Shown here in pieces: positions 5,027 through 57,110 of a stretch of DNA of 64,000 bases. Each line of letters starts with the position of its first letter. The first letter of the stretch is position 1. The notes under the pieces were generated by a model that had not been told where the DNA came from, did not search any database, and saw only the letters and a program-made list of their open reading frames with translations. This DNA is from Raillietiella orientalis (Eukaryota). Made by a program: the position numbers and the translations under genes. The stretch lies in contig JAYWIR010000119.1 of the NCBI GenBank assembly GCA_036172245.1, forward strand, positions 1 through 64,000. The letters are read 5' to 3'.

Positions 5027-5087
5027 TAGTCACCCGGTCACGCCGCCCGTGTATTTTACACAAGATTTTAGAACAATTACAGAAAAT
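5027..5087 (-). mobile_element. 61-bp 5'-truncated LINE 3' terminus with ~12-bp degenerate TSD (duplicated at 15028-15088)
   Basis: Minus strand ends aaatacacgggcggcgtgaccgggtgacta, like the family 3' end. Flanks are agagcaggagat (5015-5026) and agcgcgggagat (5088-5099). Confidence 0.75.
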
Positions 5088-18377: not shown

Positions 18378-20059
18378 AGTTGATCGAGCGTTGCTACGAT
18401 AGCGGCTGGCTGCAGGGCGTCCCTCACGGAGAAAAGCCGAAAAACGTCTCTGGGAGGGCTACCTTCCACGATCCCTGGGGTCGTACCCAAGCGTTCCCAA
18501 AGAAGCCGGAGGGCAGCGCAGTCAACTAAGAGGTGCGAAAGGGATTCACGCTCCCCACACCTGGCACATTTTGGATTCACTCGTCCCCGTGTCCAGTGGT
18601 GGCGGCGCGCGTTGCAGCGGAGCCGCCAGTGCAACAGCATAAGCGTCAACTCCTGCCATTTTAGGGGAAGGATCCTTCTTCCGGTTATCACTGGAGGCCA
18701 CTTCAGGTCGTCCGTCGTGGTGCCGAGCAGCTCGCCCAATTTTTTGAGTCCTTGCGGAAGGACGCTCTTGCTTTGTGTCGTCTGCCAGCTGTCCCATGGT
18801 CCAACCGCTCATCAACTTTTCCCTGCCTGCGATACGGCAACAGACTTGCCACGTCGGCGTCCGGCTGCTGACAAGGGCCGTACGCAGGAAGGGCACCACC
18901 GTCGCTAGGCAGGTCGTCCCTGCCCACGTGCTCCTGGCTGGACACTCCAGGATCTCGCGTAAAGTGCAGCGGGCGTATCGGCCGCGTCGCACGCTGTTCC
19001 ACGTCTCATGGCTCCTCTGATTCACTACCGCCCATGTGCCAACTGCCGTTTCTTCCAGCCATGCGCTTGAGTTGACGGAGCCGCAGATCATCCACGCATT
19101 CTCCTTCGCCTGGGTGGCTATTCGTCCGAGAAGAAGGCCGCATCTTCCTATCTTCCTTCCACGACATAAAAGATGAGATGCAAGTCCTCCCGTTCCGGAT
19201 ACATGTCTGGCGAGGAGGCGGGCCGGAACACACAGCAAGGGGTGCTCCACAACTCCGCTGCGATGGCCAAGGTTCGCCATCGCACTTGAATTTCCATGCG
19301 CTCCAGCGTCAGGAGGCCTGGACCACCATCTCGACGCGGAGCGCACGAGTCCATCAAAGGGACTCGGGGCCTCCCCTTGCCCCAAAGGGCGATGCGCAGG
19401 AGATCCTTTATCCTCTTTTTTGTTTCCACGGGGACGGGGCAAACAAAAAGTAGGGGGCGAAGGATGGGAGCCGCAAACGCGTTCCATACCGCGTACTTCC
19501 AGGAACGGGCCGATAGCCAACTTCACTTTCCGGAGACGGCCTGACCAGGCTTCTGACGGGCGGAAGTCGCCCAGCGGAACGCCAAGGTACTTCAAATACC
19601 CGCCCGTTGGGATCCCCATGCGGATCCAATCAGGCCGTCCTACCCACGTCGCTCCAACTGTTACCACCGACGATTTTGCACGGAGCCGCATCCCACGGCT
19701 TAGCAGATCGAAGAAATATTCGACTGCCGTTGCCGGGGCGGACAGTGGGAGCAGGAGCAGCAGATCGTCGGTATATGGCGACACGGCAGGCGTGCCGGGG
19801 AAGGAGCTTGGCAAGGCAGCCAAAGTCGTCCTGTGCGCTCTCAGCACCAACTCGATGTAGGTTCTAAAGAGCAGGGCATTGAGGCTATAGCCCCGCGGTA
19901 TCCCGCGGCACGCCGTACACGTTTTGTCCTCTGAAAGAGATGTTCGTCAGCGCGGCGCGCCAGCAGGAGCGCAGGTACGCACTTAAGGTAGGTGGGAAGC
20001 CCATGCGATCCAGGAGCTCCAGGAAAAGCACGTGGTCCACGCAGTCGAACGCTTTGCGT
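18378..20059 (-). mobile_element. Element P': RT 3' part (from RKAFD to the C-terminal Cys motif); host of H
   Basis: ORF 18546..19850 has YTDDLLL and KYLGVPL. Begins at cgcaaagcgttcgac (RKAFD). Confidence 0.85.
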
Positions 20060-21255
20060 GCTCCAGTGTGGACGTGTTTTCTGGGTGCTTCTCGTGATAT
20101 GAAGTCTTCCCAGTGCTAGCGTCGTGTGGTTCGGTGGTCGATCAGGCAGCGATGCATAAGGCGACCACCAGGAATGGCCAGAGGGCAGCGGCTACGTTGC
20201 CTCCAGAGGCGATGGAGAGCCAGGGGGTGGCGTCAACGTCACCCCTAGAGGCGATGGAGGTGAAGGCATCCGCCCCCACAGAATCGGTCCCCGCTGCAGC
20301 GCGGGCGTGGAGCGCCGTTGTGTCGGCGCCATCGCCTGCAGCCGCGACGGAATTGTCGGTATATGTAGAGAAGGGGTACAATCCCTCATTGTTCTACAAG
20401 TTAGGCAATTTATATTCTTTAGAGAGCGCGCGCGCCTTCTCGAAGGGCATGCGCGCTCTCGATGTTAAAGAGGAGGAGCTCAGAGCTATGACCATCTGCA
20501 GCTGGGGTCAGTACTTTGAGGTCATCTGGAAACAAGCAGAGCTGGCCCAACGACTGCCTAAAACCTTTTTGGTGATTGGGACGCGCAGGCTTCTCCGTAT
20601 TACGGCGGACCGCAGCATGGTGGTTCACCTGTTAGGTGTTACCGCGCGGATGCGCAAGTTACAGGTTCGCGCCGCGTTGGAGGAATACGGAACGGTCCAC
20701 GCGCAGTGGGCAAAAGTTAGTCCTTTCGAGGACTACACGGGGCTACAACACGGCCTTACTGCTGCGCGCGTGACCGTTCGGGAGGGCTGCACTCTTCCCC
20801 ACAAACTGGTTGTCGAAGGCGAAACAGTCTTCCTCTGGTATGTGGGGAAGCCGAAATACTGCGGCTTCTGCAATATGTTGGGCCACCTCTAAAAGAGTTG
20901 TCCCAATGTGCAGTGCCAAGTATGCGGAATTATGGGACACACGAGGAAGGTGTGCGCTAAAGTAGCAGTGCGGGTGGTTTCTAAGAGAAACCTTAAAATA
21001 CGTGCCCGGCTTCTGCAGAAAAGGCTGGCGGCGAAAGCTGCCGCGAAGGCTGTGCCACCCTTCGCTCAAGGCCCAAGCCGCACTCGAGACTCCGGCGAAC
21101 AACGCCGAACAAGTTGAGGGAGCGGCCAGGAGCCTGGGTGGCAGGTGGCTACGGCCAAAAAATCAAAGAAGAAGAGGAGGATGGAGAAAAAGCTCGCCTA
21201 CCGCCAGAAAAAACAGCAGGCAAGCGAGCAAATTGAAGAATGCAGCGTTGTCGTT
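20060..21255 (+). mobile_element. Element H, 5' part (5' UTR plus ORF1 N-terminal part with premature stop)
   Basis: 5' end gctccagtgtggacgtg; ATG 20152; CGFCNMLGHL*KSC and CQVCGIMGHTRKVC knuckles; ends at EECSVVV. Confidence 0.85.
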
Positions 21256-23970
21256 CATTAACCGGTCGCGCCGGGACGTTTATTATAATATCAACTGAGA
21301 ACTGTGTTCCCAGGCAAGGGGAACAGAAAATGGGGAGTAGATTTCCAGGAACGCAGTCCGGACACACTGAAAGTTCGGAACGGGAGGGGGTGGGACAATA
21401 AATAAACTAAGTGGGGGGGCGGGGACAGGGGTATACAGTCTAGCCGTCTCTATTCTCAGAACCGGCGGTGAATGCCGCCGATCTCCATTCTCACTTCTGC
21501 TCCAAGATGTGGCCACCCGGCAGCCATTTGCAGGTTGTAGGCTGCGGTGTCGGGGACCGATGTTGGGACTGCTCGCATCTGCAATACGTGGCGGGCCCTG
21601 ACAATGGCGCGGACGCAGCAGATGATTGCGACGACCGCTCCAAGAGAAAGTCCGCCACGCGTGTAGAAGCGGCGCATCCAATCCAGTGCGGTGTGTCCAG
21701 GGTTCAGGAGCGCTGAAGACAGCCGCTGCCACAGCTCCTGGAGGGCACCGCACTCAAACAGCAAATGCGGAAGCGATTCCACCGCTCCGCATTTGGCACA
21801 GTTCGGGGACGCAACTCTCCCGGAAATCAGGTGCGCCCGCTGGTTGCAGTACAAACCCCAATGCACCAGCAGAAAAGCGTCCTGCATCCACCGAAGGGGG
21901 GAGAGAGTCGCGTCCAAACACGCAGAAGGGACCACAAGTTCATCGGTGGGCACCCCGAGGAGCTCACTCCACCGGAGAAGCCCCTTTGCAAGAATGCGAG
22001 GTGTGGCAGCGTCTGCCACTTCGCAAGTCCTCCAGCCGCCCAGCAGTCGGGTTTCGCCTGCGATTTCGCAAGTGATCTCCCACCTCGCCGGCAGGTCACT
22101 GTCATCTCGCACCATCAGTGCACACAGTGCTTCGGCGAGTGGCGTAGCGCCTAGGCGTGTCCACTGGTCCTGGTCTTCCAGCACCTCCCCCACTGGACAG
22201 TATGGGGAAAGTTTCACGCAACGGAGTTCCAAACGGGACACATCCTGTTGCGCTGCCCAGGACGATAAGGCTTCCTGCCTCCAGGCGTTGAAGTTCGTCG
22301 GCCGGCAGGAGATCCACTCATGCTTTCCCAGAAGCGTGGCGAGCTGCTTCAAAGGGAAGCCGAATCCTCTCTGGGCGCGCTCCGTGCGCAGATGCAACGA
22401 ACGTAGTCCGTCGCCACCCGTGCTGCGCCGCAGCAGCAGCCGCGCTGGAGCACACCAGGGAGTAGTCCAGAGCTGCGCACAAAGTGCCAGCATGCGGAAC
22501 TGCACAAGCAGTCCGATCCGCTCCAGCGTCAGGATGCCCAATCCTGCATCCCGCCGAGGAGCCGCCAAGTCCTTCAGGCGTATCCTGGACCTCGCCGGTC
22601 CCCACAGGGCGTTACGCAACAGGCGTTGCACCCGGCGCTTAGCCGAGTAGGGAGGGGGACAAACAAAAAAGAGGGGACGGAGGAGGGGGGCAACGAAAAT
22701 GTTCCACACGAAGGCCCGTTCCGACAGGAGAAACCTGCCGCCTTGGAACGGGCCCAGAGCAGTCTCGGCCTTGTGAAGGCAGTCCGACCACGCTTCTGCT
22801 GGACAGAAGGCGCCCAAGGGAACGCCGAGGTACTTCAAGCACCTGCCCATGGGGATCCCCAGGCGGATCCAGTCGGACTGCCCCTCCCACGTAGAGCCAA
22901 CCGGTACAACGGTTGATTTCGTCCTGTTCGCGCTCAGGCCAGCTCCCCGACGAATGAGATCGAAGAAGTCCTCGAGCCTGGACGCCGGGGTGGACATGGG
23001 CAGCAGCAGGAGAAGGTCGTCAGCATAGGCGGCCACGTTCGGTGTTCCCGGGCAGGAGCTCGGCAGGTTGGCCAGCGTCAGCCTGTACGCCCTCAGCACC
23101 AACTCAAAGAAGATGCTGAAGAGCAGGCGGCTTAAGCTGTCTCCCTGCCTGATACCCCGCCGTATGGAAACACCGTACACGTGACGCCCGCTGAAAGAGA
23201 TACAGCATAACGCGTGGCGCCAGCAGGAGCGCAAGTAGGCGATGAGGTGCGTCCGGAGGCCTAGGCGTCCCAGAAGCTCCAGAAGGAGGTTCTGGTTTAC
23301 GCTGTCGAACGCTTTGCAGAGATCGACGGCGACTGCTAAGGCTCCCGGCGTTCCATCGTGCCTTGAACACCGCCGCTTTCCTTTGGCAGCGGCGATTTCG
23401 GCTGCCTGGCTCTGCTGCGCCACGCGCTGCTGCAACTCGAACCATGTTCGCGCGAAGAAGAGATTCGCGTCCATGGACCGCCCCGGAACAGCATACGTCT
23501 GCTCCGGACTTACCAAGGACTCCACGATTCTCCCCAGGCGCGCGACCCATAGCCTGGAGAACAACTTGACGTCCGAATTCACCAATGTGATCGGACGCCA
23601 GTTGCTGAGGTGGCGCAAATCACCGCCTTTCGGCAGGAGCCGCACCTTTGCTGAGCGGAAAGAAGCGGGAACATCTCCCGTCTCACGCATCAGCGAGGAA
23701 AGGCTTAGCACCAGGGGGACGAGCTCCGCCGCGAAGCACTGAAAGAACTCCGCGGGCAGGCCATCCTCCCCAGGCGCCTTACGCCTCTTCAGATTCGCTA
23801 TGGCAGAAGATACTTCTTCCGCCGTGAAGGGCCAATCCAATCTGGCGCGTTCCTCCTCGTCGATAGCAGGGTTGCCCGTCGGAAGAAGCAGCTCGGAGAG
23901 ACTGCGTTCCGTGGGTTCCTATGCGTACAACGAGGAGTACTAGCGCTTGACTACGCGGCGCACGGCGGAC
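21256..23970 (-). mobile_element. Element I: 3' part of a LINE with intact 3' terminus (probably the 3' half of K)
   Basis: Long RT ORF. Terminus reads aataaacgtcccggcgcgaccggttaatg on minus. Confidence 0.88.
21456..23840 (-). CDS. ORF2 RT plus C-terminal Cys-rich domain of element I (794-codon open stretch, N-terminally broken)
   Basis: KAPGEDGLPAEF, WRPITLVN, VDLCKAFDSV, GIRQGDSLS, YADDLLL, KYLGVPL, CAKCGAVESLPHLLFEC. Confidence 0.9.
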   Translation of the reverse strand: MDWPFTAEEVSSAIANLKRRKAPGEDGLPAEFFQCFAAELVPLVLSLSSLMRETGDVPASFRSAKVRLLPKGGDLRHLSNWRPITLVNSDVKLFSRLWVARLGRIVESLVSPEQTYAVPGRSMDANLFFARTWFELQQRVAQQSQAAEIAAAKGKRRCSRHDGTPGALAVAVDLCKAFDSVNQNLLLELLGRLGLRTHLIAYLRSCWRHALCCISFSGRHVYGVSIRRGIRQGDSLSRLLFSIFFELVLRAYRLTLANLPSSCPGTPNVAAYADDLLLLLPMSTPASRLEDFFDLIRRGAGLSANRTKSTVVPVGSTWEGQSDWIRLGIPMGRCLKYLGVPLGAFCPAEAWSDCLHKAETALGPFQGGRFLLSERAFVWNIFVAPLLRPLFFVCPPPYSAKRRVQRLLRNALWGPARSRIRLKDLAAPRRDAGLGILTLERIGLLVQFRMLALCAQLWTTPWCAPARLLLRRSTGGDGLRSLHLRTERAQRGFGFPLKQLATLLGKHEWISCRPTNFNAWRQEALSSWAAQQDVSRLELRCVKLSPYCPVGEVLEDQDQWTRLGATPLAEALCALMVRDDSDLPARWEITCEIAGETRLLGGWRTCEVADAATPRILAKGLLRWSELLGVPTDELVVPSACLDATLSPLRWMQDAFLLVHWGLYCNQRAHLISGRVASPNCAKCGAVESLPHLLFECGALQELWQRLSSALLNPGHTALDWMRRFYTRGGLSLGAVVAIICCVRAIVRARHVLQMRAVPTSVPDTAAYNLQMAAGWPHLGAEVRMEIGGIHRRF

Positions 23971-24641
23971 GCTGGCTGGTGTGGCTTTCATGCTCAAGCC
24001 AGCCGTCGTTAATGCGCTGCGCGACGTGCACTTCAACGGGGAAGGTCAAATCGGGCAGCTTGTTGCCAAGTGGTCCGACGCGATCGACCTCGTCGTGACC
24101 AACGTGTGCGCGCCCGGCACGAGCCACAGGCGCGGGGAACGCACTGCGTTCTTCGAAGGCCTGCGGCGAGATTGGCTGGCCGAAGCAGACATGCGAAAGG
24201 CGCACCTCATTGCCGGGGACTTTAACGTCCGCCTGCTGGCAGGTGCGCCCGACATTCGCGCACAGCTGGTCAACGAGATGTGCGCTGCCATGCACGCGCG
24301 CAACTTGTTGGCCGGTGACGCCGGGACGGAGACGAGGATCGACCACATGTTCCTCGACAACCACCTGTGTTCGCGGGTGGGAAATCGAGGGGCAGTGCCA
24401 TCCGAACTTTCCGACCATCCCCGGCTCGTGCTAGAAATACACCCGCGAGGTAGAGGTCCACCCTCCACAGCGTGGCGTTTGCCAGGGGACTGGTTGCGCC
24501 TCGCAGGAGCAGCGCAACATCTTCGCTTGTTCCTCCAAGGCTTCCATCTGCAGTCGCTGGCGGACTGGGACGACTTGAAGAGCTCAGGCCGCGAGTTCTG
24601 CGACCAGTTTCCCCTGAACCGTCTCCCTCCAGGTTTCGGCG
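23971..24641 (+). mobile_element. Element A, endonuclease fragment (5' part lost)
   Basis: ORF 23981..24673: TNVCAP, IAGDFN, RIDHMF, SDHPRL, ending LPPGFG at the insertion site. Confidence 0.88.
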
Positions 24642-27586
24642 ATGCCACCCGGATACGCCGGGACGTTTATTAAAAACATTTCAACGGTCAATACAGAACG
24701 TGGTACAAGGCCCCACTGACGGCCACGGAATGCCGGAACTGCCGGGACACCGGGACGCAGCCCGGTGTGCGTCTCCTCGGCAGAGGAGGGGGATGGGGGA
24801 AAAAACAAAAATAAAATAAAATAGAAAAACAAACCACAAAAAAAAAAGTTTGGAGGGCCGGGAAGGGATCACAGAAAACTGCTGGGAGCGCCCATCCTTT
24901 GCAGGATGCCTTCTAGTTCCATTTTCAGCTTTCCTAGATGGGGCCATCGGGTAGCTCTCTGCAGGAAGCGCGAAGCATACTCGATGACGTCCCTCACGAT
25001 GCAGTCTTCATCTTCGGCATCACTCCAGGTCGCCACGATACCACGAATGCAGCAAAGTGCTGCCAGGGCTGCGGCTGGACTGAGGGCGTCCCGCACGAAG
25101 ACAAGACTGAAGATGCATTCAACATTGCCACCATCCGGTATCCGGAGGGCCGTTTTCAGACGATCCCAAAGAATCCGGACGGCAGGGCATTCAACTAAGA
25201 GGTGGGGGAGCGACTCCCGCTCCCCTCACCTGGCACACGCAGGATTTACTCTTCCCCGCGTCCAGTGGAAGCGGCGCGCGTTGCAGGGTAGACCCCAATG
25301 CAGCCACAGAAGCGCCGATTCTTGCCACTTCATGGGGAGAATCCTGGATCCAAGTAGAACCGGAGGCCACTTCAGGTCATCCAGTCGAATGCCGAGCAGC
25401 TCGCCCCATCTTCTTAATCCACGCGGCTGGAGACTAGGGGTCGTTGCATCTGTCAACTCTCCCATGGTCCAGCCGCTCATCATCTTCTCTCTGCCTGTGA
25501 TACAGCAGCAGACTTGCCACCTTGGCTTCCGGCTTCCGTGAAGCGCCCTTTGGAGGAAGGGCATCGCCGTAACAAGGGGTGTGCCTTCCGCCCACGTGTA
25601 ACTCGGTGGAAATTCAAGAATATCACGGAGAGTGCGGCGGAAGTATAAACCGACTCGCAGGCAGTTCATCCGGTCTTCGCACCTTTGGTTCTGCTTAGCC
25701 CAGGTGCCAGCAGTCTCTTCCAGCCAAGCGAAGGAGTTGGCAGGGCCACAAACCATCCAGTCGTTCTCCTTTGCCAGGGTTGCGATGCGGCCGAGCAGTA
25801 GACCGCATCTTCGAATCTTCCGGCCAGGGCACAGAAGAAACGATGCGAGTCCTTCGCAGCGGGACACACGCCTGGCCAGGAGGCGGGCCGGAATGCACCA
25901 AGCGGTGCTCCACATCTTCGCTGCGATGGCGAGGGTCCGCCATCACAGCTGGATTTCCACGCGCTCCAGCGTCAGGATGCTGAGACCGCCGTCCCGACGC
26001 GGAGCGCACAAGTCTTTCAAAGGGACTCGGGGCCTCCCCTTGCCCCAAAGAGCTATGCGGAGGAGGTCCTTAGTCCGCTTTTTTGATTCCACGGAGGCGG
26101 GGCAAACAAAAAGCAAGGGGCGGAGGATGGGGGCCGCGAAGGCGTTGCAAACCGCGGCCCGTTCCGGCAAGTGAAACTTGCCTTCCAGGAACGGGCCGAT
26201 CGCCGTCTCGACTTTTTGGAGGCAGCTGGACCACGCTTCCGCAGGGGAGAAGTCCCCCAACGGCACACCGAGGTACTTGATGCACCTCACCGTGGGGATC
26301 CCCAGACGGACCCAGTCCTGCTGCCCTGCGCACGTCGCTCCAACTGGCAACACTGACGACTTCGCCCTGTTAACCTGTAATCCGGCCCCACGGCTAAGCA
26401 GGTCGAAGAAATCTCCGACCGCCTTCGCCGGGGTGGACATAGGTAAGAGGAGCAGAAGATCGTCGGCATACGCCGCTACGGCTGGCGTGCCGGGGCACGA
26501 GCTCGGCAAGGGGGCCAAAGTCACCCTGTACGCTTTCAGCACCAACACAGCGTAGGTGCTAAAAAGCAGGGGGCTGAGGCTGTCGCCCTGCCTTATGCCC
26601 CGCCGCACCGGCACGCCATACACCTTTTGTCCACTGAAAGTAATCGAGATTATCGCGTTCCGCCAGCAAGAGCGCAGGTAGGTAATCAAGGAAGGTGGGA
26701 AGCCCATGCGACCCAGGAGCTTCAAGAGGAGTTCCTGGTCAACACAGTCGAATGCCTTATGGAGGTCGACTGTGATCGCTAAAACCCCCTTTCCCGCATG
26801 AGGGTGCCTTCCCTGTCCCACTGGCGGCCCCAAAGTAGGGTTGCAAATTTTCCCTTTCCCTTCTTTATTACTCCGCTGCGCGTGCATCCATGTGCTCGCG
26901 AAGAAGAGGTTGTCCTCCATACTTCGCCCGGGAACAGCGTAAGTCTGCTCCGGGCTAATTATGGAATTGGACACCTGCCCCAATCGCGACGCCCGCAGCC
27001 CGGCAATCAACTTGGCGTCCGTGTTCACAATCGTGATCGGACGCCAGTTGCAAAGTTTCCTGAGGTCTCCTCCCTTCGGGAGGAGCCTCACCCTGGCTGA
27101 CCGAAACGAGGCGGGATCATCGCCTTCGTCTTGGATTCGCCTTGTCAACTCGAGCACCAGGGGGGCCAGCTCTTCCGCGAAACTCTGAAAGAACTCCGCG
27201 GGCAAGCCGTCCTCCCCTGGCGCCTTACGCCTCTTGAGCCTTTTGATACCGGCGAGAATTTCACCGGTCGTGAAAGGCTCATCGAGGCTTTCTTTGTCCT
27301 CCTCCCCTATCGCCACGGAACCACTCATGAGCAATCGCCGCGAGGCGTCTTGTTCGGGTGGTGTTTTGGCGTAAAGGGAGGAATAAAAACACCGCACGGG
27401 ATTCCGTACCGCAGGCGGGGACGAACGTTCCCGGCCCAGGTCATCCAGCATGCTGGCTGACCCTGATTACCTAGCTTGTCGCTCGGCTCCGGCGCGGTAT
27501 TCGGCCAGGCGACGGACATTGGGGTTCCTCTCGTGATGACGCGCGTGCAAATACGCGCGTTCGTTGCGAGCCCCGTCGCCGAATCC
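24642..27586 (-). mobile_element. Element B, 3' half (post-EN linker, frameshifted RT, 3' UTR and terminus)
   Basis: ORFs 25943..27451, 25226..25915, 24869..25096. Terminus aataaacgtcccggcgtatccgggtggcat. Confidence 0.9.
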
Positions 27587-27596
27587 CTTGGCGAGT

Positions 27597-27603
27597 GGAC
27601 GTG
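27597..27603 (+). promoter_or_regulatory. GGACGTG, DPE-like internal promoter motif
   Basis: Present at all intact 5' ends: 20070, 27597, 44725 on plus; 35962, 39756, 55103 on minus; variant TGACGTG at 2665 and 12665 on minus. Confidence 0.55.
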
Positions 27604-27682
27604 TTTTTCCTTCGCTCCCGAGTGAGTCGACAGGAAGCGGTTTTTTGTTGTGTTGTTTAGTGCGGAACATCGTTGGTGTCCG

Positions 27683-29439
27683 ATGGCAGCGATGCCTGAG
27701 GACACCACGATGGAGGTAGGTGTGGGGGAGGCTTGCCCACCCCCACAGCCTACAGAATCAGTGGCGTCCGCCCCGGAATCGCCCTCGCCGCTCAAGGCGA
27801 GGAGCTGGAGCGCCATGGTGGCCGCGCCGAGCGCGGAAACCATGGCCGAGATGGCGGCCTACCGGGCAGCTGGGTACAAGCCCAGCTTGGTTTACCAGGT
27901 AGGCAATCTCTTTGACGGGCGAACTGCACGCGCTTTTTCGAAAGCGCTGCAGAACGCCAACGTATTAGAAAAGGACCTTGACGGTCTATCCGTGCTAAGC
28001 GGGGGTCAGCGCGTTGAGGTTGTCTGCAAGGACATCACCTTGGCGCAAAGCTTGATAACCACCCCGCTGAACGTGGACGGACGCAAGATCCTACCAGTCA
28101 CGATGGACCGCTCCGTAGTGGTCCATCTGACAGGGATCACCATCCGCATGACGCGGTCTGCGGTTGGTGATCAGTTAAGAAAGCACGGGGATGTTCACGC
28201 GCTTTGGCCAAAGGCCACAATCTTCGATGGCTACGATAGCCTTTTCGGAGGGCAGGCCGCCGCGCGCGTGACGGTGAACGAGAGTGGGCTTCCCCACAAA
28301 CTAGAGGTCAATGGCGAAGTCGTAGACCTCTGGTGCGTGGGGAAACCCCGCTTTTGTGGCTACTGCAATGCAGTAGGACACTTGCGCAAGCGGTGCCCGA
28401 ACATTGTGTGCCACTTATGCGGGGAGAAGGGCCACGTACGCCGCGTATGCCCTAAACTCCCCACTCCGGTGCCGCCTGCTGCAAAAAAAGCACAGGCAAA
28501 ACGCGGTAAACTGGTCGAAAGACCAAAAAGAGATACTGGCCGGCAGCAGCCGCTAGCCCCTGTTCCTCCCACACAGGCGTCGGAAGAAAAACCCTCCGAA
28601 GACGCGGGAGTCCAAGACGGCTGGCAGCTGGTCAAGGCCAGGAAGGAGAAAACGGTGCCCCCCGCGGAACCCGCAAAAGCGGTAAAAAAGACAGCCGGCA
28701 AGGCGAAAAAACCTGGGCCGCGCTCTAAGACCATGCAGGAGTGTACGGTAGCACTGGAGCGCATAGCCGTTCCCGAGATTGCCACCCGGGGCGACGAGCC
28801 TTCCCTCGCCGTTTCCGCCGCGCCCGAGGTTCGCGACGGCGAACCCTCTGTTTACACAGAGGGTGAGCCGCGCGACGCGCCGGTCGACACTGCGGACGCC
28901 GCGTTCGCAAAGGCGGCGGAGGAGCTCGCAGCCACGCTGGCGGAGCGTGAGAACCCCTCACGCAAGGCCGTGCGAAGGCCGGCTCCCGCGAAAAAGGCCC
29001 CCACAGGTGAGTCGGACCTGGGGGCCGGAAGTGCATCCTCCTCCTCGGAGGCACCCCCAGGAAGTCGGGACGCAAGTCCCAGAAACCCAGGAGGCGCCTC
29101 CCCTCCACCAGCGAGGAGGAGAAGCAGGAAGGTAGCGGTAGCGTGGGAATCCTGGAGGGGGAACTCCCACGCTCGGAAGCCGTCGAGCCGGCCACCCCCA
29201 TGGAGGAGGGTGAGCAGGGGGGCGAAGTCCTCCCTGCAGTCGCCGAGCCTGAACAGCCCGCCCCCATGGAGGAGGGCCAACAGGTAGGCGCGACCCCACT
29301 TAAGGGTGATCCGGACGACGCGCCGGCACCGATGGATGAGGAGGAAAAGGTGCCTTCAGTACCTGTCCCCCCTCCCCCTCCACCTAACGTCCCGCCCCAG
29401 CAGGTGGCGGACGCCGCATCGCCGTTTTCCCTGGACTAA
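27683..29439 (+). pseudogene. ORF1 of C (two CCHC knuckles), one frameshift near 29060
   Basis: CGYCNAVGHLRKRC and CHLCGEKGHVRRVC. The C-run before agg is one base shorter than in the intact B ORF1. Confidence 0.88.
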
Positions 29440-33033: not shown

Positions 33034-33209
33034 TCCCTTCCCTGCCCTCCAACTTCTTTTTGTTTGTTTCTTTTTTTATTTTACTTTTTGTCTCATCCCC
33101 ATCCCCCTTCGCTGTCGGGGAATGCCACGCCGGGCTGCGTCCCGGTGTCCCGACAGGTCCTGTGTTTACGGCCGTGGTGGGGCCTTGTACCACGCATGTA
33201 AAGTTTATC

Positions 33210-33240
33210 AATAAACGCCCCGGGCGTACCCGGGTGGCAA
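33210..33240 (+). terminator. Conserved LINE 3' terminus: AATAAA plus CCCGG/CCGGG hairpin plus TGGCAA, no poly(A)
   Basis: Same layout at the ends of A, B, E, F, I, M and the 61-bp insertion. Confidence 0.75.
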
Positions 33241-46754: not shown

Positions 46755-49700
46755 TTGTCACCCGGGTGCGCGGGGGCGTTTATTATAAACTATCCGGGAA
46801 CAGGGTTCCCGGACAAAGGGGAAAACAAGAGACGAAGGGGGTGGGATCCCCGACACGCAGGTCGGTATGCCGAAAGTCCGGAACGGGAGGGAAGGGACCA
46901 CAAACACACTACTATATAAAAAAATAAAAGAAAAATATGGAGGGCAGGGGACAGCGGTCTTTGGTAAATCCGTTCCTTCCTTTCAAAACCGGCGATGGAT
47001 GCCGGCGATCTCTCTCCTTACGCCCTGTGGCAGATGGGCCCACTGGGCAGCCGACGACATGTTTGCGCTGGCTAATCCGGTGGGCTGACGAAGGATGGCC
47101 AGCTTCTCCAACTCTCGGTGGGCCTTGTCGATGGCGCGGGTGCAACACACGGTTGCAACGACAGCATTCAATGACAGGCCGCCTGCCGTGAAGAAGCGGC
47201 GCATCAACTTCCTCGCTGTGTCCCCCTGGTGCAGGAGAGCTGAGGCCAGCCTTCGCCAGAGTCCTAGAAGGACACCGCAGTCCAGGAGCAGGTGCGGGAG
47301 CGTTTCCACTTCCCCGCACCGCTTACAGTTTGGGGAGACGACTCCCCCGGAAACAAGGTTCGTGCGCTGGTTGGAGTGAAAACCCCAATGCACCAGCATA
47401 ATCACGTCCTGCTTCCACGAAAGGGGGAACACAGAAGTGTTCAGACACGAGGGAGGAACCACAAGTTCTTCAAGGGGCACACTCAAGTGTTCGCTCCACC
47501 GAAGGAGTCCCTTCGGAACGTGGCGAGGTGTGGCGGCGTCCGCCAGCTCGCAAGTCTTCCAGCCGCCAATAGGTCGCGTTGTTCTTGCGATGGTGCAGGC
47601 GACCTCCCATCTCGCCGGTTCGCAACTGTCATCTCTTGCCCTGAGGGCTGACAGTGCGTCTTCGAGGGGGGTGACGGCCAGGCGGGTCCACTTCTCCTGG
47701 CTGTTGCACACCTCATCCACCGTGCAGTACGGGGAGAGGTGAGCGCAAAGGAGTTCCAGGAGGGAAACATCCTGGTGCTTTGCCCAGCCATGCAACGGTT
47801 CCTGCCTCCAGGCTTCAAAGTTTGTTGGGCGGCAGAAGATCCATTCCTGGGCTTCCAGGAGCCGATACAGCGGTTTCAAGGGGAAACCGAAGCTTCTCGT
47901 GGCGCGCTCCGTGTGCGGCCGCAGCGACAGAAGTCCATCGCTGCCTGTGCAGCGCCGCAGAAGCAGGCGCGCGGGAGCGCACCACGGAGTGGACCAAAGG
48001 TTGGCGCACAGGGCCAACATCCGAAGCTGCACCTGCAGCTCGATTCTCTCCAGCATCAGGATGCCTAAGCCAGCATCCCGACGCGGAGCCGTTAAGTCTT
48101 TGAGGCGGATCCTGGACCTCGTAGGTCCCCACAGAGCGTTCCTCAACAGGCTTTGCGCCTGGAGCTTGGTCGAATAGGGAGGAGGACAAACAAAAAGCAG
48201 GGGGCGTAAGAGGGGGCAACGAAGGTGTTCCACGCTGTGGCCAGCTCCGGCAGGACGAACCTGCCATGGTGGAACGGGCTCAGGGCATTCGAAGCCTTCC
48301 GAAGGCAGTCCGACCACACTTCCACTGGGCTGATGTTCCTCAGCGGAACGCCCAGATATTGCACGGAGGAAGCGGTCGGGATCCCCAGGCGGATCCAGTC
48401 GGACTGCCCCTCCCACGCCGCACCAATAGGTACGACCACGCTCTTGCTCCGGTTTACGCTCATGCCCGCTCCCCGGCGAATCAGCTCGAAGAAATCCTCG
48501 AGACTGGACGCCGGGGTGGTCATGGGTAAGAGGAGAAGCAGGTTGTCAGCATAGGCCGCCACAAACGGCGTTCCTGGACAAGAGCTCGGCAGGTTGGCCA
48601 GCGTCAGCCTGTACGCCCTCAGCACCAACTCAAAGAAGATGCTGAAGAGCAACGGGCTTAAGCTGTCGCCCTGCCTGATGCCCCACCGCACCGGCACGCC
48701 GTACACGTGGCAGCCGCTAAAAGAGATGGAAGTGAGCGCGTGGCGCCAGCAAGCGCGCAAATACGCCACGAGGTGCACCGGGAGACCGAGGCGTTCCAGG
48801 AGCTCCAGCAGGAGATCCTGATTTACGCAATCGAATGCCTTGCGGAGATCGACGGCGACCGCCAAGGCACCCGGCGCTTCCCCAGGCCGAATGCAGCGAC
48901 GCCTAGCCTCGGCAGCCGCAGACGCGGTTGCCTGGCTTTCGTGCGCCACGCAGCGTTGCAGCTCGAGCCACGTGCGCGCGAAGAACAGGTTCGCCTCCAT
49001 GGACCACCCGGGAGCAGCGTAAGACTGCTCCGGAGTTACCACGGATGCAGCGATCCTGCCCAGGCGCACGACCCACAGCCTGGAGAACAACTTGACGTCC
49101 GCATTCACCAAGGTGATGGGACGCCAGTTGCTTAAATGGCGCATGTCTCCACCTTTCGGCAACAGACGCACCCTTGCTGAGCGAAACGAGGCCGGGACAT
49201 TGCCCGTCTCTCGCATCAGCGCAGAAAGCCTCAGCACTAGGGGGATGAGTTCCGCCACGAAGCACTGGAAGAACTCCGCAGACAGACCATCCTCACCTGG
49301 CGCCTTGCGCTTCTTGAGGCCCGTTATGGGGGAAGACACTTCTTCCGCCGTGAAGGGCAAGTCAAGAGTGGCGCGTTCCTCCTCGTCGACCGCCGGGGAA
49401 TACGCCGGAAGAAGCACCTCCGAGAGACTGCGTTCCGTCGTCTCCCTAGCGTACAACGAGGAGTGATAGCGCTTTAGGAAGCGGCGAACTTCGACCGCGC
49501 CCGAGCACTCCAGGCCCTGGTCGTCGAGCAGACAAGCTGCTCCTGACTGCCAGACCTGGCGCTCGGCCTTGGCCTTGTACTCCGCAAGGTACCGGACGTC
49601 CGGGCATCGGGAGAATTGGCGCGCCTGCAGAAACTCTCTGCTGTTGGCCACGCCTTCCCCGAAGCCACGGGGAAGCAGGCGCAAGGGGAACCGGCTGCAG

Positions 49701-50642
49701 AACTCGCGGACCGATCTTTTCAGATCGTCCCAGTCCACGAGCTCTCGAACGGCAAACGCCCGGAGATGCTGACGGAGGTGCTCCGCAGCCACCGGATTTC
49801 TCAACCAGTCGGCCGGCAACCTCCAGACGTGCGTCGGAGGGCCCTTGCCAGGCGGGAGTAGCTCAAACTCCAGCCTGTAGTGGTCGGAAAGCTCGGACGG
49901 CACGGGACCTCTTCGGCCCACCCGACAACGCAGGTGGTCGTCGAGGAAGACATGGTCCGGCAAAGCACGCATTCCGGGATCGTCGGCCAGCAAATTCGAG
50001 GCGTGCACCGACGCGCACACCTCGTTCACCAGCCGTTTCTCCCGGCGACGGTGAGACTCCTCCGATAGCGCGTAGACGTTGAAGTCCCCGGCTACGAGGT
50101 GAGCCACGTCGGGGCCGGAGTTGCTGAGCCAGCGGTCGCGCAGTCTCTAGAAGAACTCCAGTTTCTCGGTGTGACCCGCGGAGCCGCTCGGCGCGTACAC
50201 GTTCGTGACGACAAGGTTGATCGATTCGGACCACTTGAGAACAAATTGGCCCACACGACCTTCCTCGTCGAAACAAACGCTCCGCACCGCTCCCGCCACC
50301 CTGACCCGGACAAGGAATGCGACTCCGCAGGTATTCTGGGAGCCTGACCTCCAATGGAGCGTCTCGCCTGCGCGAACTTGCAGATCGGCCGCTTGCTGCT
50401 CGGAGAGTGCGTGAATCTCCTGCAGCAGGGCCAGATCGAAGTAGCGCAAGACGTTGGCAACCAATCGCCTCTTCTCGTTGTCCTGCAGCCCGTTGACGTT
50501 CCAACAGGCCACACGGACGCGACGGGAAGAAGCGAGACCGCGCATTGCTGCTACGGACATGGAGGTGCGTTCCTCGCCCCTTCCGGCGAGGCATCAGCCG
50601 GGAGCACGGCGGATGAGGTAGCGCAAGCGAGGCGCACACAAC
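46755..50642 (-). mobile_element. Element F: complete but frameshifted ORF2 (about 50560-46983) plus 3' terminus; ORF1 mostly lost
   Basis: ORFs 50147..50560 (EN), 48143..50107 (EN-RT, YADN), 46983..48416. Terminus aataaacgcccccgcgcacccgggtgacaa. Confidence 0.9.
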
Positions 50643-51883
50643 GCCCTTGGTGCGTTCCGGCCCTACTCCTTGCCAGCCGTGTATCCGGGACGAAGGGTCT
50701 CGCGTCTTATCTTCTGTGCCGTGGCAGGAAGATCAAGGGATGCGGACTTCTCCTGGGGAGCATGGCAACTCTGGCTAAGGAAAACGACTGGATGGTATGC
50801 AGCCCCGCCAACTCCTCCGAATGGCTGGAGGAGACAGCTGGCACGTGGGCGAAGATAAACCAGAAGAACGGAGAGATGTGGAACTGCCTGCGACGCGGCA
50901 GCTATTCCCGCTGCACTCTGCGGAAGTTACTCCAGTGTCCAGCGAGAAGCACGTGGGCAGAGACAACCCCCCTAGCAACGGCGATACCCTTCCTGAGGAG
51001 GGCGCTCTCCAGCAGCCGCAAGCCTAGGTGCCAAGTCTCCTGCCACATCGCAGGCAACGAGAAGTTGATAAGCGGCTGGTCCACGGGGCAACTGGCAGAC
51101 GCCACTACCCCTAGTGTCCAGCCGAGAGGACTTCAGAGATGAGGCGAGCTACTCGGCATCCAGCCGGATGACCTGAAGTGTCCCCCGGTAGTAATTGGTT
51201 CTAGAATCCTCCCCCTGAAGTGGCAGGAGTAAGGGTTTCTGTTGTTGCATTGGGGTCTACCCAGCAACGCACGCCGCCACCACTGGACCAGGGTTCGAGT
51301 AGATCCTACCTGCATCAGGTGTGGGGAACGGGAAACCCTCCCCCACCTCCTTGTTGATTGTGCTGCCCTCCGAACCCTGTGGGAACGTCTTCGTGCCTCC
51401 CTACGGATCCAGGAGGGCAGCCAGCCCAGAGACGTTTTTCGGCTTCTGTTCTTGCAGGATTCCCTTTCGTCCAGCCGCTACCCTGGCTGCACTTTGCTGC
51501 GTACGCGGGATTGTGACGTGCTGGAGCAACGTCAGAAGACCGAGCCACGACAGGGATGCCGTCGTACTTGCAGTCCGCTACCTGCGGATTGCGACCAGAT
51601 GGCCCCACCTGGGAAAAATACGCACGAACCTCAAGGGCATCCTGCAAAGGATGGATCCTCCTCCCAATGGACCTTGATCCCTTCCCTGCCCTCCCAAATC
51701 TTTTTGTTTTTATGATTTAGTTTTCTTTTTGTTTTTTCTCCCACCCCCTTCTGATGCCGAGGAGAGTCGCGCCGGTCTGCGTTCCGGCGACACGGCAGGT
51801 CCAGTTGAGTTTGCCGTAGTGGGGCCTCGTACCACGAATCATAGAGAATTTGAAATAAACGCCCCGGCGTGACCGGGTGGCAA
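50643..51883 (+). mobile_element. Element M: 3' fragment, inverted duplicate of the 3' part of E
   Basis: ORFs 51242..51715 and 41963..42436 are near-identical. Terminus aataaacgccccggcgtgaccgggtggcaa (51854-51883). Confidence 0.88.
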
Positions 51884-54800
51884 CCAGCAACTAGGCGCCC
51901 GCATTCACTATTGTGATGGGACGCCAGTTGTTCATGCTCCTCAGATCTCCTCCCTTAGAGAGGAGCCGCACCTTTGCCGAACGAAATGAGGCGGGAACGT
52001 CACCTGTCTCGCGTATCAGCAAGGTGAGTTGCTGTACCAGGGGGGTAAGCTCAGCCGCGAAAGTTTGATAAAACTCCGCGGGCAGGCCGTCCTTCCCTGG
52101 AGCTTTGCGGCTCTTGAGCTTTCCGAAGGCCGAGAGGATCTCGTTCATCGTGAAACGCTCGTCGAGGGTCTTTCTCTGCTCCTTTCCGATCGCTGGAGCG
52201 CCTTCCGGAAGAAGGAGTCGTGAGACGTTCTTCTCCAGAGGTGCCCTGGCATACAGGGAGGAGTAGTAACTCCGCAAGAGGCAGCGGATTTGGGCGGGTG
52301 CCGAGTGCTCCTGGCCCTGATCGTCCAGCAAACTGGCCGATCCGGACTGCCAGGCTTGCCTCTCGGCTCCCGCTTTGTATTCCGCCAGCCTGCGGATGTC
52401 GGGGGTCCTTGCGTAACGACGGGCCTGCAGGTAGGCTCGTTCCTTACGGACCGTGGTCCCAAAACCCGTAGGTAGGCGGGGCAGAGGGAACTGGTCGCAG
52501 AACTCCTGGACCGACCGCTTGAAGCGATCCCAATCCTGGATTGTCCGCACCCTGAAGCTTCGTATGAACGTGTGGAGATGTTCCGCCGCGTCCGGGAGCT
52601 TCAGCCAGTCCCCTGGGAGACGCCACACTCACGAGGGGGGGCCCCTGTCGCGCGGATGGATCTCGAGGACTAGCGGGCGATGGTCGGACAGCTCGCACGG
52701 TAACTTGCCGCGCCTGCCCACGCGAGGGCACAGGTGCTCGTCAAGAAACACGTGGTCAATGCTGTTTTCCATCCCCGGTGCACTGACCAACAAATTACAG
52801 GTGTGCACCGCCATGCACACCTCGTTGACCAGGTCACGCTCGGGATTCTGCCCATCTGGTTTCAGGCGAACGTTGAAATCGCCTGCAACCAGATGGGCAT
52901 TCCGCACGCCTGCTTCGGTCAGCCAGTCTCGCTGGAGGGCAAGGAAAAGCTCTTTCCTCGCCCTCCTGGTCATCAGATCTGCGCCGCTCGGTGCGTACAC
53001 GTTCGTGACGATCAGATCGATCGAGTCGGACCACCTGAGAGTCAGCTGGCCGACACGACCGTGATCGTCGAACCGCACGCCCAGAGCCGCGGCCTCCACG
53101 GCTGGCCGAAGCAGGTAGGCGACACCGCAACTTTTCGCTCTCCCACACCTGTACCATAGCCGCCCTCCGGAGATCCGTTCGATCTCTTGCGCTTGTGCTG
53201 CAGAGATCACGTGGTTCTCCTGCAGCAGCGCAAGGTCGTAGGACTCCAGAAGTGCGGCCATGTCTCTTCTTTTGTTGGCGTCTGTCATGCCGTTCACGTT
53301 CCAAACGGCCATGCGTAGTCGACGGCGGGAGGAGATTCCTGGCATTACTGCTGGGAAGATTAAAGTGTGGGGGAGCCCGCCTCTTGCGAGGCGGGTGGGA
53401 TGTCCTAGGGGGTTCTCGGACTTCTCAGGCACCTGAGCCACCGCTTTGGCCTTCACCCCCTCCATCCCCTCCATGTCCGTGCGTGGGAGTCTCTCGGGCG
53501 ACGGGTCCCGAGAGTTCCCCACGCTCATGGCACCCTCGCTTGCGGAAGCCATCTCTTCCCGTACGACGGGAAAGACGAGCTTCCTTGGCTTTGTGGACTT
53601 ACGTCCACCCTTCTTGCGCGGTGCCGTGGAAACGGAGGCTTCGCTTCCGGCCTCCACCTCGGGGTCGGAAGTGGGGGACTCCTGAGGGGAGGCCGGACGC
53701 CTTACGGCCTTCTTGCCAGCCTTGGAGGCTTTTGGCTGCAACGAGGCAGCCAGTTCCTCCGCGGCTCGCGCGAAGGCTGCGTCATCGATGGTGGTGTCGA
53801 TGACGGACGCCGCCGCCGGCTCGCTTCCCTCGCTATGACAGAGTCAACAGGGGGGAGGTCGCCGGTAGCGGCGAGTTCTTTCTGGCAGCGTTCGGCAACA
53901 TCGAGAACGCGTTCGACAACGACGCTGCACTCTTTAATTATCGCGCTACCGTGCTCTTTCTTCTTCTGTTGGTATGCGATTTTTTTTTTCGTCCTCTTCT
54001 CCTTCTTTGATTTTTTGGCCGTTGCCACTTGCCACCCAGTCTCCTGGCCGCTCCCTCAACTTTTTCGGCGTTGGAAGCCGGGGTCTCGGGTGCGGCCTGG
54101 GTCTTGGGCGCGGGTGGCACAACCTTCGCGGCAGCTTTCGCTGCCAGCGTTTTCTGCAGAAGCCGGGCGCGTTTTTTAAGGTTTCTCTTGGAAACCACCC
54201 GCACTGCTGCTTTAGGGCACACCTCCCTTGTGTGACCCATTGTGCCACATGCTTGGCACTGCACGTTGGGACACCTCTTTTTGAGGTGGCCCGACGTATT
54301 GCAGAAGCCGCAGTATTTCGGCTTCCCCACATACCAGAGGTCGACGGTTCCGCCTTCGACCACCAGTTTGTGGGGAAGAGTGCAGCCCTCCCGAACGGTC
54401 ACGCGAGCAGCCGTGAGGCCATATTGCAGCCCCGTGTAGTCCTCGAAAGGACTAACTTTCGTCCACTGCGTGTGGACCGTTCCGTGTTCCTCCAGCGCGG
54501 CGCGAATTTCTTCCTTGCGCTTCCGCGCAGTAACACCTAACAGGTGGACCACCATGCTACGGTTCGCCGTAATAGGGAGGAGACTGCGCGTCTCCATCAC
54601 CACGGGGGTTGTAAGCAGTCGTTGGACCAGCTCTGCTTGTTTGCAGATGACCTCAACGTACTGACCCCCGCTGCGGATGGTCATAGCCCTGAGCTCCTCC
54701 TCTTTCACATCGAGAGCGCGCATGCCCTTCGAGAAGGCGCGCGCGCTCTCTAAAGAATATAAATTGCCTACCTTGTAGAACAATGAGGGGTTGTACTCCT

Positions 54801-55113
54801 CCTCTACATAGGCCGACAATTCCGCCGCGGCTGCAGGCGATGGCGCCGACACAATGGCGCTCCACGCCCGCGCTGCAGCGGGGACCGATTCTGTGGGGGC
54901 GGATTCCCCCATTTCCATCGCCTCTGGGGGTGACGTTGCCGCCGCTTCCTGGCTCTCTATCGCGTCTGGGAGCTGCGTTTCCGCTGCCCCCTGTCCATCC
55001 CTGGTGATCGCGTCAGGCATCGCTGCCTGATCGACCACCGAACCACAGGACGCTTGCACTGGGGGAGACTTTTTGGCACGAGGAGCACCGAGAAAACACG
55101 TCCGCCCTCGAGC
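51884..55113 (-). mobile_element. Element L: H-family 5' end, ORF1 (ATG 55020), EN and start of RT, interrupted by M
   Basis: ORFs 53938..55059 (CGFCNTSGHLKKRC), 52629..53741 (EN), 51891..52628. Confidence 0.9.
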
Positions 55114-57110
55114 GCATAAGGCGTTCGTCTGTGTAGACCAGGAACTCCTCTTGGAGTTTCTGGAGCGTCTTGGGCTTCCGATTCAACTTTTCCTGTACTT
55201 GCGCTCCTGCTGGTGCCACGCTCTACTGAACTTGCATTTCAGTGGCTCTCGCGTGTACGGCGTGGCCGTGCGCTGAGGTATAAGGCAGTGCGACAGCTTT
55301 AGCCTGTTGCTCTTGAGCATCTTCTTTGAGTTGATGTTTAAAGCGTACAGGTTGACGCTTGCCGTCCTGCGCAGAGCCTCTCCCTGCACTCCGTCCGCAT
55401 CAGCATACGCCGACGACATTCTTTTTCTGTTGCCCATGTCCGTTTCTCCGGAGTCGTTCGAAGACTTCTTGGAGATGATCCGTCGTGGAGCAGGCATGAG
55501 CCTTAACAGGGCGAAGTGCTGCGTCGTGGCGGTGGGTGCGTCGTGGTTGGGGTAGGCCGAGTGGGTCCGCCTCGGGATCCCCACGTTCAGGTACTTCATG
55601 TACCTTGGCGTTCCGTTGGGCGACATCTGCTCGTCAGAAGCGTGGTCGGCCTATCTTCAAAAGGCAGAGATGGCTCTCGGCCCGTTTCTGGAAGGCAAGT
55701 TGGTCTTTTCGGAAAGGGCGTGCATATGGAACACTTTTCTTGCACTCCTCCTCCGACCCTTGTTTTTTGTTTGCCCGCCTCCCTATTCGGTGAAACTACC
55801 GGCGCAGCGTCTCCTACCCAAAGTGTCGTGGGGCGCTGCAGGCTCCAAGGTTTGCCTTAAAGATTTGGCTGCACCATGCTTGGTTGCAAGCTTAGGCATC
55901 CTGACCATATAGAAGATTGGACTGCAAGTGCAGTTCCGGCTTCTATCCCTATGTGGGAAATTCTGGTCTAGTCACTGGTGTGCTCCGGCTCGCCATATCC
56001 TCCAGCGATGTGTCGGCAGTGCATGACTGCTTTCGTTGCTGCCGCGCAACTTTCGCCGTAGAACTGGATTTGGCTACCCACTGAGGCATCTGTTTTCGTT
56101 GTTGTTAGCCCATTTTTGGATTTCCTGTCGTCCCTTCAGCTGGAATGCCTGGCAGCAGGAAGCTCTGGAGCATGGAATTCCACTTTGAATGTGCGTCCAG
56201 AGCAACTGGGACCTCTAAAGGGCCTCTTACGCAAACCGCTAGCAGTCATGCTAATGGACTGGTCGCTTTGGTCCCGGGTAGCCGTCTCACTCATCGCCGC
56301 AGGGCTGTCTGCCCTCAGGGCAAACAACGACAGTAGCCAACCGGCAAGGTGGAAGTTTTTCTGCAGCATTGCAGGAGTGGAAAGACTGCTGAGCGGCTGC
56401 AAAACAAGCGTATTGGTAGAAGCTGCCACTCCTCGTTACCCGGCAAAGGGACTCCTTCGGTGGAGAAAGGTTGTTGGATTACTCCTCGAAGATCTTGTGG
56501 TCCCTTCCTTGTGAGTGGACACCTCCGTGTTCCCGCTTCGATGGAAACATGATGTTCTGCTTTTCCTGCACTGGGGATTTCAGTGCAATAATCGCAGGCA
56601 CTTGGTTTCCGGAGAAGTTGCCTTCCTGAACTGCCTCTGGTGCGGGGAGTTAGAATTGCTTACGAACCTGCTCTTGGACTGCAGTGACTTGCGGGAGTTA
56701 TGGCGGAGACTTGCTTCGGCGCTTCGTCGTCCCCAGGACATTGCCATCGACCTACCGCGACGTTTCTTTAGGGAAAACGGACTATAAAAAGGCGCTGTGG
56801 TCGCAACAATCTGTTACATCCGCGCCATCGTAACGGCCCGCCGTAAGCTACAAGGAAGCTCCCGGCGAAAGGTCGCCGACAGGATATCCGCGAACCTCAT
56901 GAAGGCAGCTGTCAGGTGGCCTCATCTGTCCACATAATTCTCCAGGGAAGTCGCCATCGTCAAACAGCGCTTCTAGGAAGATGAGGAACGTTTAATACCA
57001 AAGATACCTGACCCCAACCTCCACTGTTTTTTGTTTGTTCTGTTCTTTTTTGTTTTTTTTGTACCCCTATCCCCCAGTTCGCTTCTTTTTGAAGTCGGCC
57101 TGCGTGCCCA
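55114..57110 (+). mobile_element. Element N: heavily decayed RT 3' half (I/F-like); host of L and outermost element of the cluster
   Basis: HKAFVCVDQE, YADDILF, YLGVPLG, CLWCGELE, with many stops. T-rich 3' UTR at ~57025-57090. Confidence 0.85.

Follow-up and report, generated by a model that had tools for sequence, protein, structure and literature searches.

The stretch of DNA considered in this study (the window) comprises 64,000 nucleotides of contig JAYWIR010000119.1 of Raillietiella orientalis (assembly GCA_036172245.1, positions 1 to 64,000, forward strand). It holds a pile of about 57 kb of decayed long interspersed nuclear element (LINE) retrotransposons, which come from several related families and are nested in one another, and the nest is real. 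Insertion in the pile is site-specific: four sites, designated S1 to S4, have each been struck repeatedly at the identical nucleotide. The GC content is about 0.50-0.63 over positions 1 to about 57,000 and near 0.60 for the LINE cluster, as against 0.40-0.49 in the last 7 kb. The analysis concerns this one locus, and the recurrence of sites is recurrence within it.

The elements are apurinic/apyrimidinic endonuclease-type (APE-type) LINEs and are L1/Tx1-like by architecture, having a first open reading frame (ORF1) with a CCHC motif, an endonuclease (EN) and a reverse transcriptase (RT); at least five families, related to one another, are represented. The RT domain (PF00078) was found in five of the 16 scanned open reading frames (ORFs) at 66.6-82.4 bits (cutoff 29.6; E 3e-18 to 5e-23), and the apurinic-type endonuclease domain (PF03372, Exo_endo_phos) in 52629-53843(-) at 46.4 bits (cutoff 24.5). 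A CCHC zinc finger (zf-CCHC, PF00098) was found in two ORF1 copies at 23.6 bits (cutoff 20.8), with a third copy at 19.1, under the cutoff. The zf-RVT domain (PF13966) at the ORF2 C-terminus scored 17.3-24.9 bits, always under the cutoff of 27.5, and a C..C..H..C pattern is visible in the translations. A single ORF, 48143-50146(-), encodes EN and then RT, and the gene order in element A is ORF1-EN-RT. This element (27587-33241, 5,655 bp) is the sole copy that is complete from 5' end to 3' end, and its ORF2 is disrupted by one stop and one frameshift. ORF2 is intact in no copy, and the longest ORF bearing an RT has 820 amino acids.

The 57 protein homologues include no close named relative: one is 63% identical, the others are at most 31% identical, and the best named matches are 26-31% identical. 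The nearest named cluster in a protein atlas is the "Transposon TX1 149 kDa protein family", which serves as a lead only. Seven related loci in metagenome contigs are only 27-32% identical, and a search of prokaryote genome contigs found no relative.

Fragments and junctions

Fragments were mapped by tblastn with the window's own ORFs, the matches being converted to a single polyprotein coordinate (v1-1762). The resulting map has 22 LINE fragments, and those numbered 7 to 22 (18386-56973) are as follows, by position, with percentages referring to identity.

18386-20055, minus strand: P', the RT part of an I2-type element (I2 lies in the left flank), counted as a third and partial copy of the 10-kb tandem unit found there; host of H; 99.0% identical to 8200-10068
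20057-21256, plus strand: H, first part; 5' end and ORF1; in S2 of P'; 87.5% identical to H'
21257-23972, minus strand: K, the 3' part of K/I; RT, the 820-amino acid ORF, 3' terminus
about 23973-24642, plus strand: C, 5'-truncated start; C-terminal part of EN; host of B (the 5' junction with K is placed to about 15 bp only)
24643-27586, minus strand: B, 3' part; RT to 3' end; host of A; 81.2% identical to the 3' half of A
27587-33241, plus strand: A, full-length; 5' untranslated region, ORF1 (CCHC), EN, RT, 3' hairpin terminus; the innermost doll, in S1 of B
33242-35972, minus strand: B, 5' part; 5' end, ORF1, EN; in S1 of C; 96.7% identical to the 5' half of A
35973-38958, plus strand: C, 3' part; RT to 3' terminus; 68.8% identical to the 3' part of B
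38959-39756, minus strand: I, the 5' part of K/I; 5' end and start of ORF1; K/I lies in S4 of H and is interrupted by C
39757-41793, plus strand: H, second part; C-terminus of ORF1, EN, start of RT; cut at S3 by the 3' end of E; 93.2% identical to H'
41794-44714, minus strand: E, 3' part; 3' end in H at S3; hosts D at S1
44715-46754, plus strand: D, 5' part; 5' end, ORF1, start of EN; cut by the 3' end of F
46755-50643, minus strand: F, an EN-RT element with its complete 3' terminus in D; on the upstream side it stops at a breakpoint and has no 5' terminus there
50644-51887, plus strand: N, the last 1.24 kb (3' side) of an element of the E type; shares 95.6% identity with the 3' end of E; in H' at S3
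51888-55114, minus strand: H', an uninterrupted H-family copy, 5' end to start of RT; 5' end at S2 of O
55115-57050, plus strand: O, a further family, RT to C-terminus; host of H' and outermost on the right; 66.3% identical to P'; no hairpin terminus was found that would mark its 3' boundary

The strands of these 16 fragments alternate without exception (16 of 16), no two neighbors lying on the same strand. Two nests can be reconstructed. In the first, P' contains H, and H contains two chains: K/I with C, B and A successively inside it, and E with D and then F inside it. In the second, O contains H' and H' contains N. An earlier, preliminary description of this locus had proposed an inner doll of A(+) in B(-) in C(+) in K/I(-) in H(+) in P'(-) and a second chain running from H through E(-) and D(+) to F(-), and the fragment map agrees with both. 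It had also proposed an element L lying inside N, a relationship that has to be reversed: the insert at 51887/51888 is N(+) and the host is H'(-), because the complete 3' terminus of N stands at the junction and H' continues uninterrupted. A single host made up of E and H' with a 600-bp duplication was considered and rejected, the overlapping parts being just 72.7% identical.

All junctions except 50643/50644 are true insertion junctions. A conserved 3' terminus, consisting of AATAAA, a GC hairpin of 5-7 bp and GGCAAC or a near variant, stands at seven fragment ends, and a search allowing up to two mismatches returned seven matches, each at a fragment end. Poly(A) is present at none of the seven mapped 3' ends, and the terminus abuts the target directly. 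The AATAAA lies 25-31 nt ahead of the final base in all seven (for example 33210-33241), which is the spacing of a polyadenylation signal, though the DNA copies have no A-tail; RT may start at the hairpin and ignore the poly(A).

At the opposite end, the motif GGACGTGTTTT (up to one mismatch) has six occurrences, every one at the 5' end of an element (20070, 27597, 35962(-), 39756(-), 44725 and 55103(-)). An exact 5' 23-mer is present in three elements (A, B and D), three occurrences against none expected in 100 shuffles. The motif GGACGTGTTTT is common to all families and is followed by a G(T)GCTCCTCG-like box, and the ORF1 proteins are only about 30% identical; the possible roles of the motif are that of a shared initiator or promoter and that of a signal for integration.

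Target-site duplications (TSDs) of 9-14 bp were found on both sides in three events: (C)GCCGAATCC for A in B (9-10 bp), GGTTTCGGCGA and GGATTCGGCGG for B in C (10-11 bp, two mismatches) and TGCA(G/C)CGTTGTCGT for K/I in H (14 bp, one mismatch). Whether fragments K and I belong together had been left open in the preliminary description; they are one insertion, since the 14-bp duplication in H flanks them.

The junction at 50643/50644 is read as a deletion or rearrangement that fused the two nests, and not as an insertion, because the interior of F(-) there meets the interior of N(+). Full-length inserts have clean junctions, and host sequence has been lost at the insert that is demonstrably 5'-truncated: about 1.1 kb of K/I, relative to I2, is gone where C inserted. 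The upstream end of F abuts the 50643/50644 join and F therefore gives no information on truncation and host loss.

Two long inverted repeats lie in the cluster, one of 2.7 kb and 96.7% identity (27602-30320 and 33242-35957) and one of 3.25 kb and 94% identity (39780-43034 and 50644-53898), and both are far more alike than the remainder of the same elements (about 80%). In the comparison of A with B, the 5' halves, which are inverted neighbors, are 96.7% identical and the 3' halves 81.2%. Between H and H', identity climbs from 87.5% to 93.2% towards the shared junction. K/I has an I-type 5' part (90.7% identical to I2) joined to an RT that is 67.3% identical to that of I2. From the sequence comparisons, these likenesses suggest gene conversion between inverted neighbors or modular recombination among families.

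The same repeats could be taken to mean that the alternation of strands comes from inverted segmental duplications, palindromes or misassembly and not from insertions, and the rearrangement at 50643/50644 and the 10-kb tandem duplication that adjoins the cluster on its left would fit with this. Such an origin is nevertheless very improbable. Every junction but 50643/50644 has a complete conserved 5' or 3' terminus, and three events have two-sided duplications of the target. Pairs that share a junction also diverge unequally: the 3' parts of B and C are 68.8% identical, compared with 96.7% for the 5' parts of A and B, and P' and O are 66.3% identical, compared with 87.5% for H and H'. Block duplication would not produce such unequal divergence of hosts and inserts.

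Recurrent insertion sites

S1 lies in the linker between EN and RT at the motif GGATTCGGCG and has received three events: A in B, B in C and D in E. Inserts A, B and D have an identical 5' end at one nucleotide of the host, and the TSD resembles GGATTCGGCG. A TSD of about 25 bp at this site was considered and rejected, as it consists mostly of the insert's own 5' end; the actual duplication is 9-11 bp. The hosts B, C and E have 68.8-77.4% mutual identity. Seven copies cover S1: the motif or a close variant is occupied in B, C and E and free in A, and H, H' and F have a more diverged motif and are all unoccupied.

S2 corresponds to the RT motif HKAFD, broken as CAT/AAGGCGTTCGAC, where the 5' ends of H and H' stand at one nucleotide. 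The hosts P' and O are 66.3% identical and the inserts H and H' 87.5-93.2%. S3 corresponds to the RT motif NWRPI..KL, after ...GACGCCTAGTTGCTG, and has received the 3' ends of E (in H) and N (in H'). For this pair the hosts are 93.2% identical, the inserts 95.6%, and the shared junction about 94%. S4 lies in ORF1 of the H family, where K/I in H and, in the left flank, I2 in H2 are found at the identical nucleotide; the inserts are 90.7% identical and the hosts 75.8%, and H2 retains 8 bp that are absent from H. At S1, S2 and S4 the hosts share just 66-77% identity, and the events at these sites therefore look independent.

A loose nick motif, RTTSNNS, fits S1, S3 and S4. In seven elements it occurs 185 times on the sense strands and 218 times on the antisense strands, and with frequencies this close it explains neither specificity nor strand; it was rejected as the cause of strand choice. 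The preliminary description had envisaged several families that target themselves and their kin, and the sites make that proposal more precise, at least four family-to-site relations recurring at the identical nucleotide in diverged hosts.

Orientation, mechanism and known systems

In the interval from 18,386 to about 57,050, ten of ten insertion events are antisense to their host: H in P', K/I in H, C in K/I, B in C, A in B, E in H, D in E, F in D, H' in O and N in H'. The left flank adds two antisense events, I2 and S, which both lie in H2, and a junction of R with H2 that is probably in sense, giving 12 antisense events among 13 that can be resolved. By this study's own one-sided binomial arithmetic, the chance of such a result at the level of events is p = 0.001 for 10 of 10 and p = 0.0017 for 12 of 13. 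If a site is specific, however, the site fixes the orientation, so the independent trials are the six to eight site classes, for which the corresponding values are p = 0.016 (6 of 6) and p = 0.035 (7 of 8).

The preliminary description had counted 11 independent antisense events and proposed a strict orientation rule. Ten events are supported, all of them antisense, and N in H' and E in H may not be independent. Another claim, that a 61-bp element end (-) lies in O(+), was not reproduced: the last 100 bases of the 3' ends of A, E, F, C and K (five of the seven mapped 3' ends), compared in both orientations, gave scores at noise level. As for the rule, orientation is nearly uniform, but there are fewer independent trials than supposed and one probable sense junction, R in H2. 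The antisense pattern at this one locus is strong, is not absolute, and follows at least in part from site specificity.

The reading that is probably correct is that the cluster consists of decayed APE-type LINEs of at least five families, each of which integrated by target-primed reverse transcription at a specific short sequence within the coding DNA of the family itself or of a sister family. At the seven visible 3' junctions, the complementary DNA (cDNA) strand of the insert is continuous with the sense strand of the host, because the inserts are antisense to their hosts. The first nick would thus fall on the host sense strand, at a family-specific site. That asymmetric site would be recognized by the endonuclease or ribonucleoprotein (RNP) of each family, which would fix orientation together with site choice, and RT would recognize the stringent 3' hairpin rather than poly(A). 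A full-length new copy would carry an intact site and become the next target; A, for instance, still has the S1 sequence. With the site intact and asymmetric in each new copy, dolls would form with a strand flip at each level. A role in priming for microhomology of the RNA 3' end to the target was considered as well and rejected, since the junction sequences, compared by eye, do not fit. Every recurrent site is on the sense strand, which might reflect a mechanistic preference common to the families or else the removal of sense-oriented families or insertions by some filter.

Several observations weigh against site-specific integration as the whole account. The specificity is drawn from two to three events per site at a single locus. 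S2 is unoccupied in eight of the ten copies with a conserved motif, so sequence alone does not set site use. The S3 pair may go back to a single event, the second copy having arisen through inverted duplication or gene conversion. D in E and A in B have similar host and insert divergence (77% and 82%), and composite co-mobilization or block duplication may therefore have produced this pair. Antisense orientation is also seen in three singletons that show no sign of site specificity (C in K/I, F in D, S in H2), and there is one probable sense junction, R(+) in H2(+).

The singletons bear on an explanation in which orientation is general and independent of site. Here the 3'-OH of the sense (non-template) strand of the host LINE would be preferred, for example when that strand is displaced in a transcription bubble or R-loop, so that any LINE inserted in a LINE would be antisense and site recurrence would be a secondary preference. 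All six site classes of the interval are antisense, including the apparently unspecific C in K/I and F in D, and S, an unrelated poly(A)-type LINE, is likewise antisense in H2. The alternation follows the immediate host and not a fixed chromosomal direction, which rules out the polarity of a replication fork or a cluster transcript as the cause. On the other hand, strand exposure alone would not predict exact reuse of single nucleotides, R in H2 is probably in sense, and the p value for 7 of 8 site classes is just 0.035. A general preference of this kind is considered unlikely as the primary cause.

Survivorship could also leave an antisense pattern. Insertions of both orientations would occur, and nests in sense, forming direct repeats of kilobase length, would be lost by homologous recombination. 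Recombination or gene conversion does seem to be active, judging from the mosaic identities of A and B, of H and H', and of K/I and I2, and between close relatives such a loss is plausible. Most events, however, join families that are 66-77% identical (S being unrelated), which is a poor substrate for homologous recombination; a site-specific insert has its orientation set at integration, leaving no sense events to be lost there; and one probable sense junction, R in H2, persists. Loss of sense nests is thus an improbable explanation of the pattern.

A bolder form of the preferred, site-specific reading is that at least five LINE families make up a guild of mutual, obligate hyperparasites, each homing to a single conserved motif in the coding sequence of a sister family or of the family itself, always primed from the sense strand, and providing a double-stranded RNA route to silencing. 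This is a tentative proposal and rather doubtful in its full extent. If it were true, the inverted repeats of insert and host (2.7-kb arms, 96.7% identical) would fold read-through transcripts into long double-stranded RNA, a built-in route to silencing or heterochromatin at a possible centromere-type LINE cluster. The nearly uniform antisense polarity also prompts one to ask whether alternating strands, and with them hairpin RNA, have a part in silencing or in the identity of a centromere.

Target-specific LINEs insert into ribosomal RNA genes, telomeres, small-RNA genes or transposons of other classes, and Zepp-type LINEs pile into themselves. A network of several LINE families that home in on precise nucleotides within the catalytic motifs of one another would clearly exemplify parasitism of transposons on transposons. 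The nearly uniform antisense polarity shows how such clusters grow by recursion into the youngest copy and offers a natural system for studying the reading of a long asymmetric site by an APE-type endonuclease or RNP. With four sites mapped and their TSDs known, the specificity lends itself to direct testing in vitro. The R1, R2, TRAS and SART elements share with the present ones specificity to a single nucleotide, a conserved multicopy target and an orientation fixed by the site, and in some of those families recognition of the 3' end does not depend on poly(A). The R elements have the same orientation as their target, which leads to co-transcription. While the targets of R1, R2, TRAS and SART are host genes or repeats, the targets here are other LINEs and the inserts are antisense.

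Among Tx1-clade LINEs, the portion of Kojima (2015, PMC4494074) drawn upon here describes Tx1L in the Tx1D piggyBac element, Tx1-Mar in Mariner-N4_AMi, Tx1-9_AMi about 300 bp into Harbinger, and Tx1-8_Crp and Tx1-4_AMi in long terminal repeat (LTR) retrotransposons. Like these, the present elements are APE-type and integrate at a defined position inside another transposon family. Compared with the examples in that portion, the targets differ in being the LINE guild's own coding sequences (HKAFD, NWRPI..KL, the EN-RT linker and ORF1); several families are targets of one another, and one inserts into its own kind; and the outcome is recursive nests with 12 of 13 events antisense. The comparison is one of behavior and architecture.

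Zepp elements have a poly(A) tail. As far as the excerpts used here go, the Zepp cluster of Chlorella/Coccomyxa has 61% GC compared with 53% (Blanc 2012, PMC3446292), and Zepp nesting is described as tandem arrays, mostly of 3' ends (Craig 2021, PMC8226300), an arrangement that implies the same orientation. According to the same excerpts and Craig 2022 (PMC9940879), Zepp and the Zepp-like L1 LINEs of Chlamydomonas resemble the present elements in inserting into existing copies and forming a compact GC-rich cluster with DNA of lower GC content on its flanks. Set against Zepp as described in those excerpts, the inserts here are full-length, strands alternate, several families take part and poly(A) is absent. 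The likening to Zepp in the preliminary description thus holds for a cluster built by insertion into its own copies, but not for poly(A) or for tandem arrays of 3' ends. A search of a limited set of literature for antisense or self-targeting LINE nests returned nothing relevant, and an earlier description may exist.

Flanks of the cluster

The preliminary description had stated that no copy lies in the 7-kb flank. This applies to the right flank: tblastn with the window's ORFs found no LINE-like match to the right of 56973. Positions 1-18385, however, are rich in LINEs. From 57000 to 64000 the ORFs are all short (at most 131 amino acids) and the GC content is 0.40-0.49; 13 ORFs of this flank gave no Pfam match, and an Rfam scan of the window found no family reaching threshold. 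In 8+67 ORFs from left-flank stretches, Pfam found nothing but a weak zf-RVT, which pointed to element S.

The left flank is part of the same LINE cluster as the interval from 18,386 to about 57,050 and belongs to a tandem duplication, 8-10068 and 9996-20055, of 98.3% identity. Each 10-kb unit holds I2(-), H2(+), S(-), R(+) and a 2.2-kb element with inverted ends:

8400-12695, minus strand: I2, of the I family; 5' end, ORF1 (CCHC motif, basic tail), a largely deleted EN, and RT; in S4 of H2
12696-12750 and 14373-15391, plus strand: H2, host of I2 and S
12751-14372 (copy at 2751-4372), minus strand: S, a 3' fragment of an AT-rich, poly(A)-type LINE inside H2(+)
15392-16059, plus strand: R, a fragment with an I-like 5' end and ORF1, its start coinciding exactly with the break in H2(+)

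A "Q(+)" element at 10868 was considered and rejected, the stretch being a remnant of the start of EN in I2(-), so that 8400-12695 is a single element. S belongs to a quite different family, with a C-terminal C..C..H..C motif in ORF2 and an A10 tail abutting H2, and contrasts with the GC-rich families without poly(A) around it. The junction between R and H2(+) lies at 5391/5392 (copy at 15392) and probably represents a sense-oriented insertion of R in H2. A third, partial copy of the unit starts at about 19984 and is ended after 72 bp by the insertion of H in P', and the tandem array may continue to the left of the window.

The 2.2-kb stretch (6060-8255, copy at 16060-18255) starts exactly where the similarity to ORF1 in R ends. 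It had no Pfam match, and no clear TSD was seen. It has imperfect inverted ends, CAGGAATGCA...TGCATTCCTG, with arms of 25 nt that are 72% complementary, and may be a non-autonomous DNA transposon.

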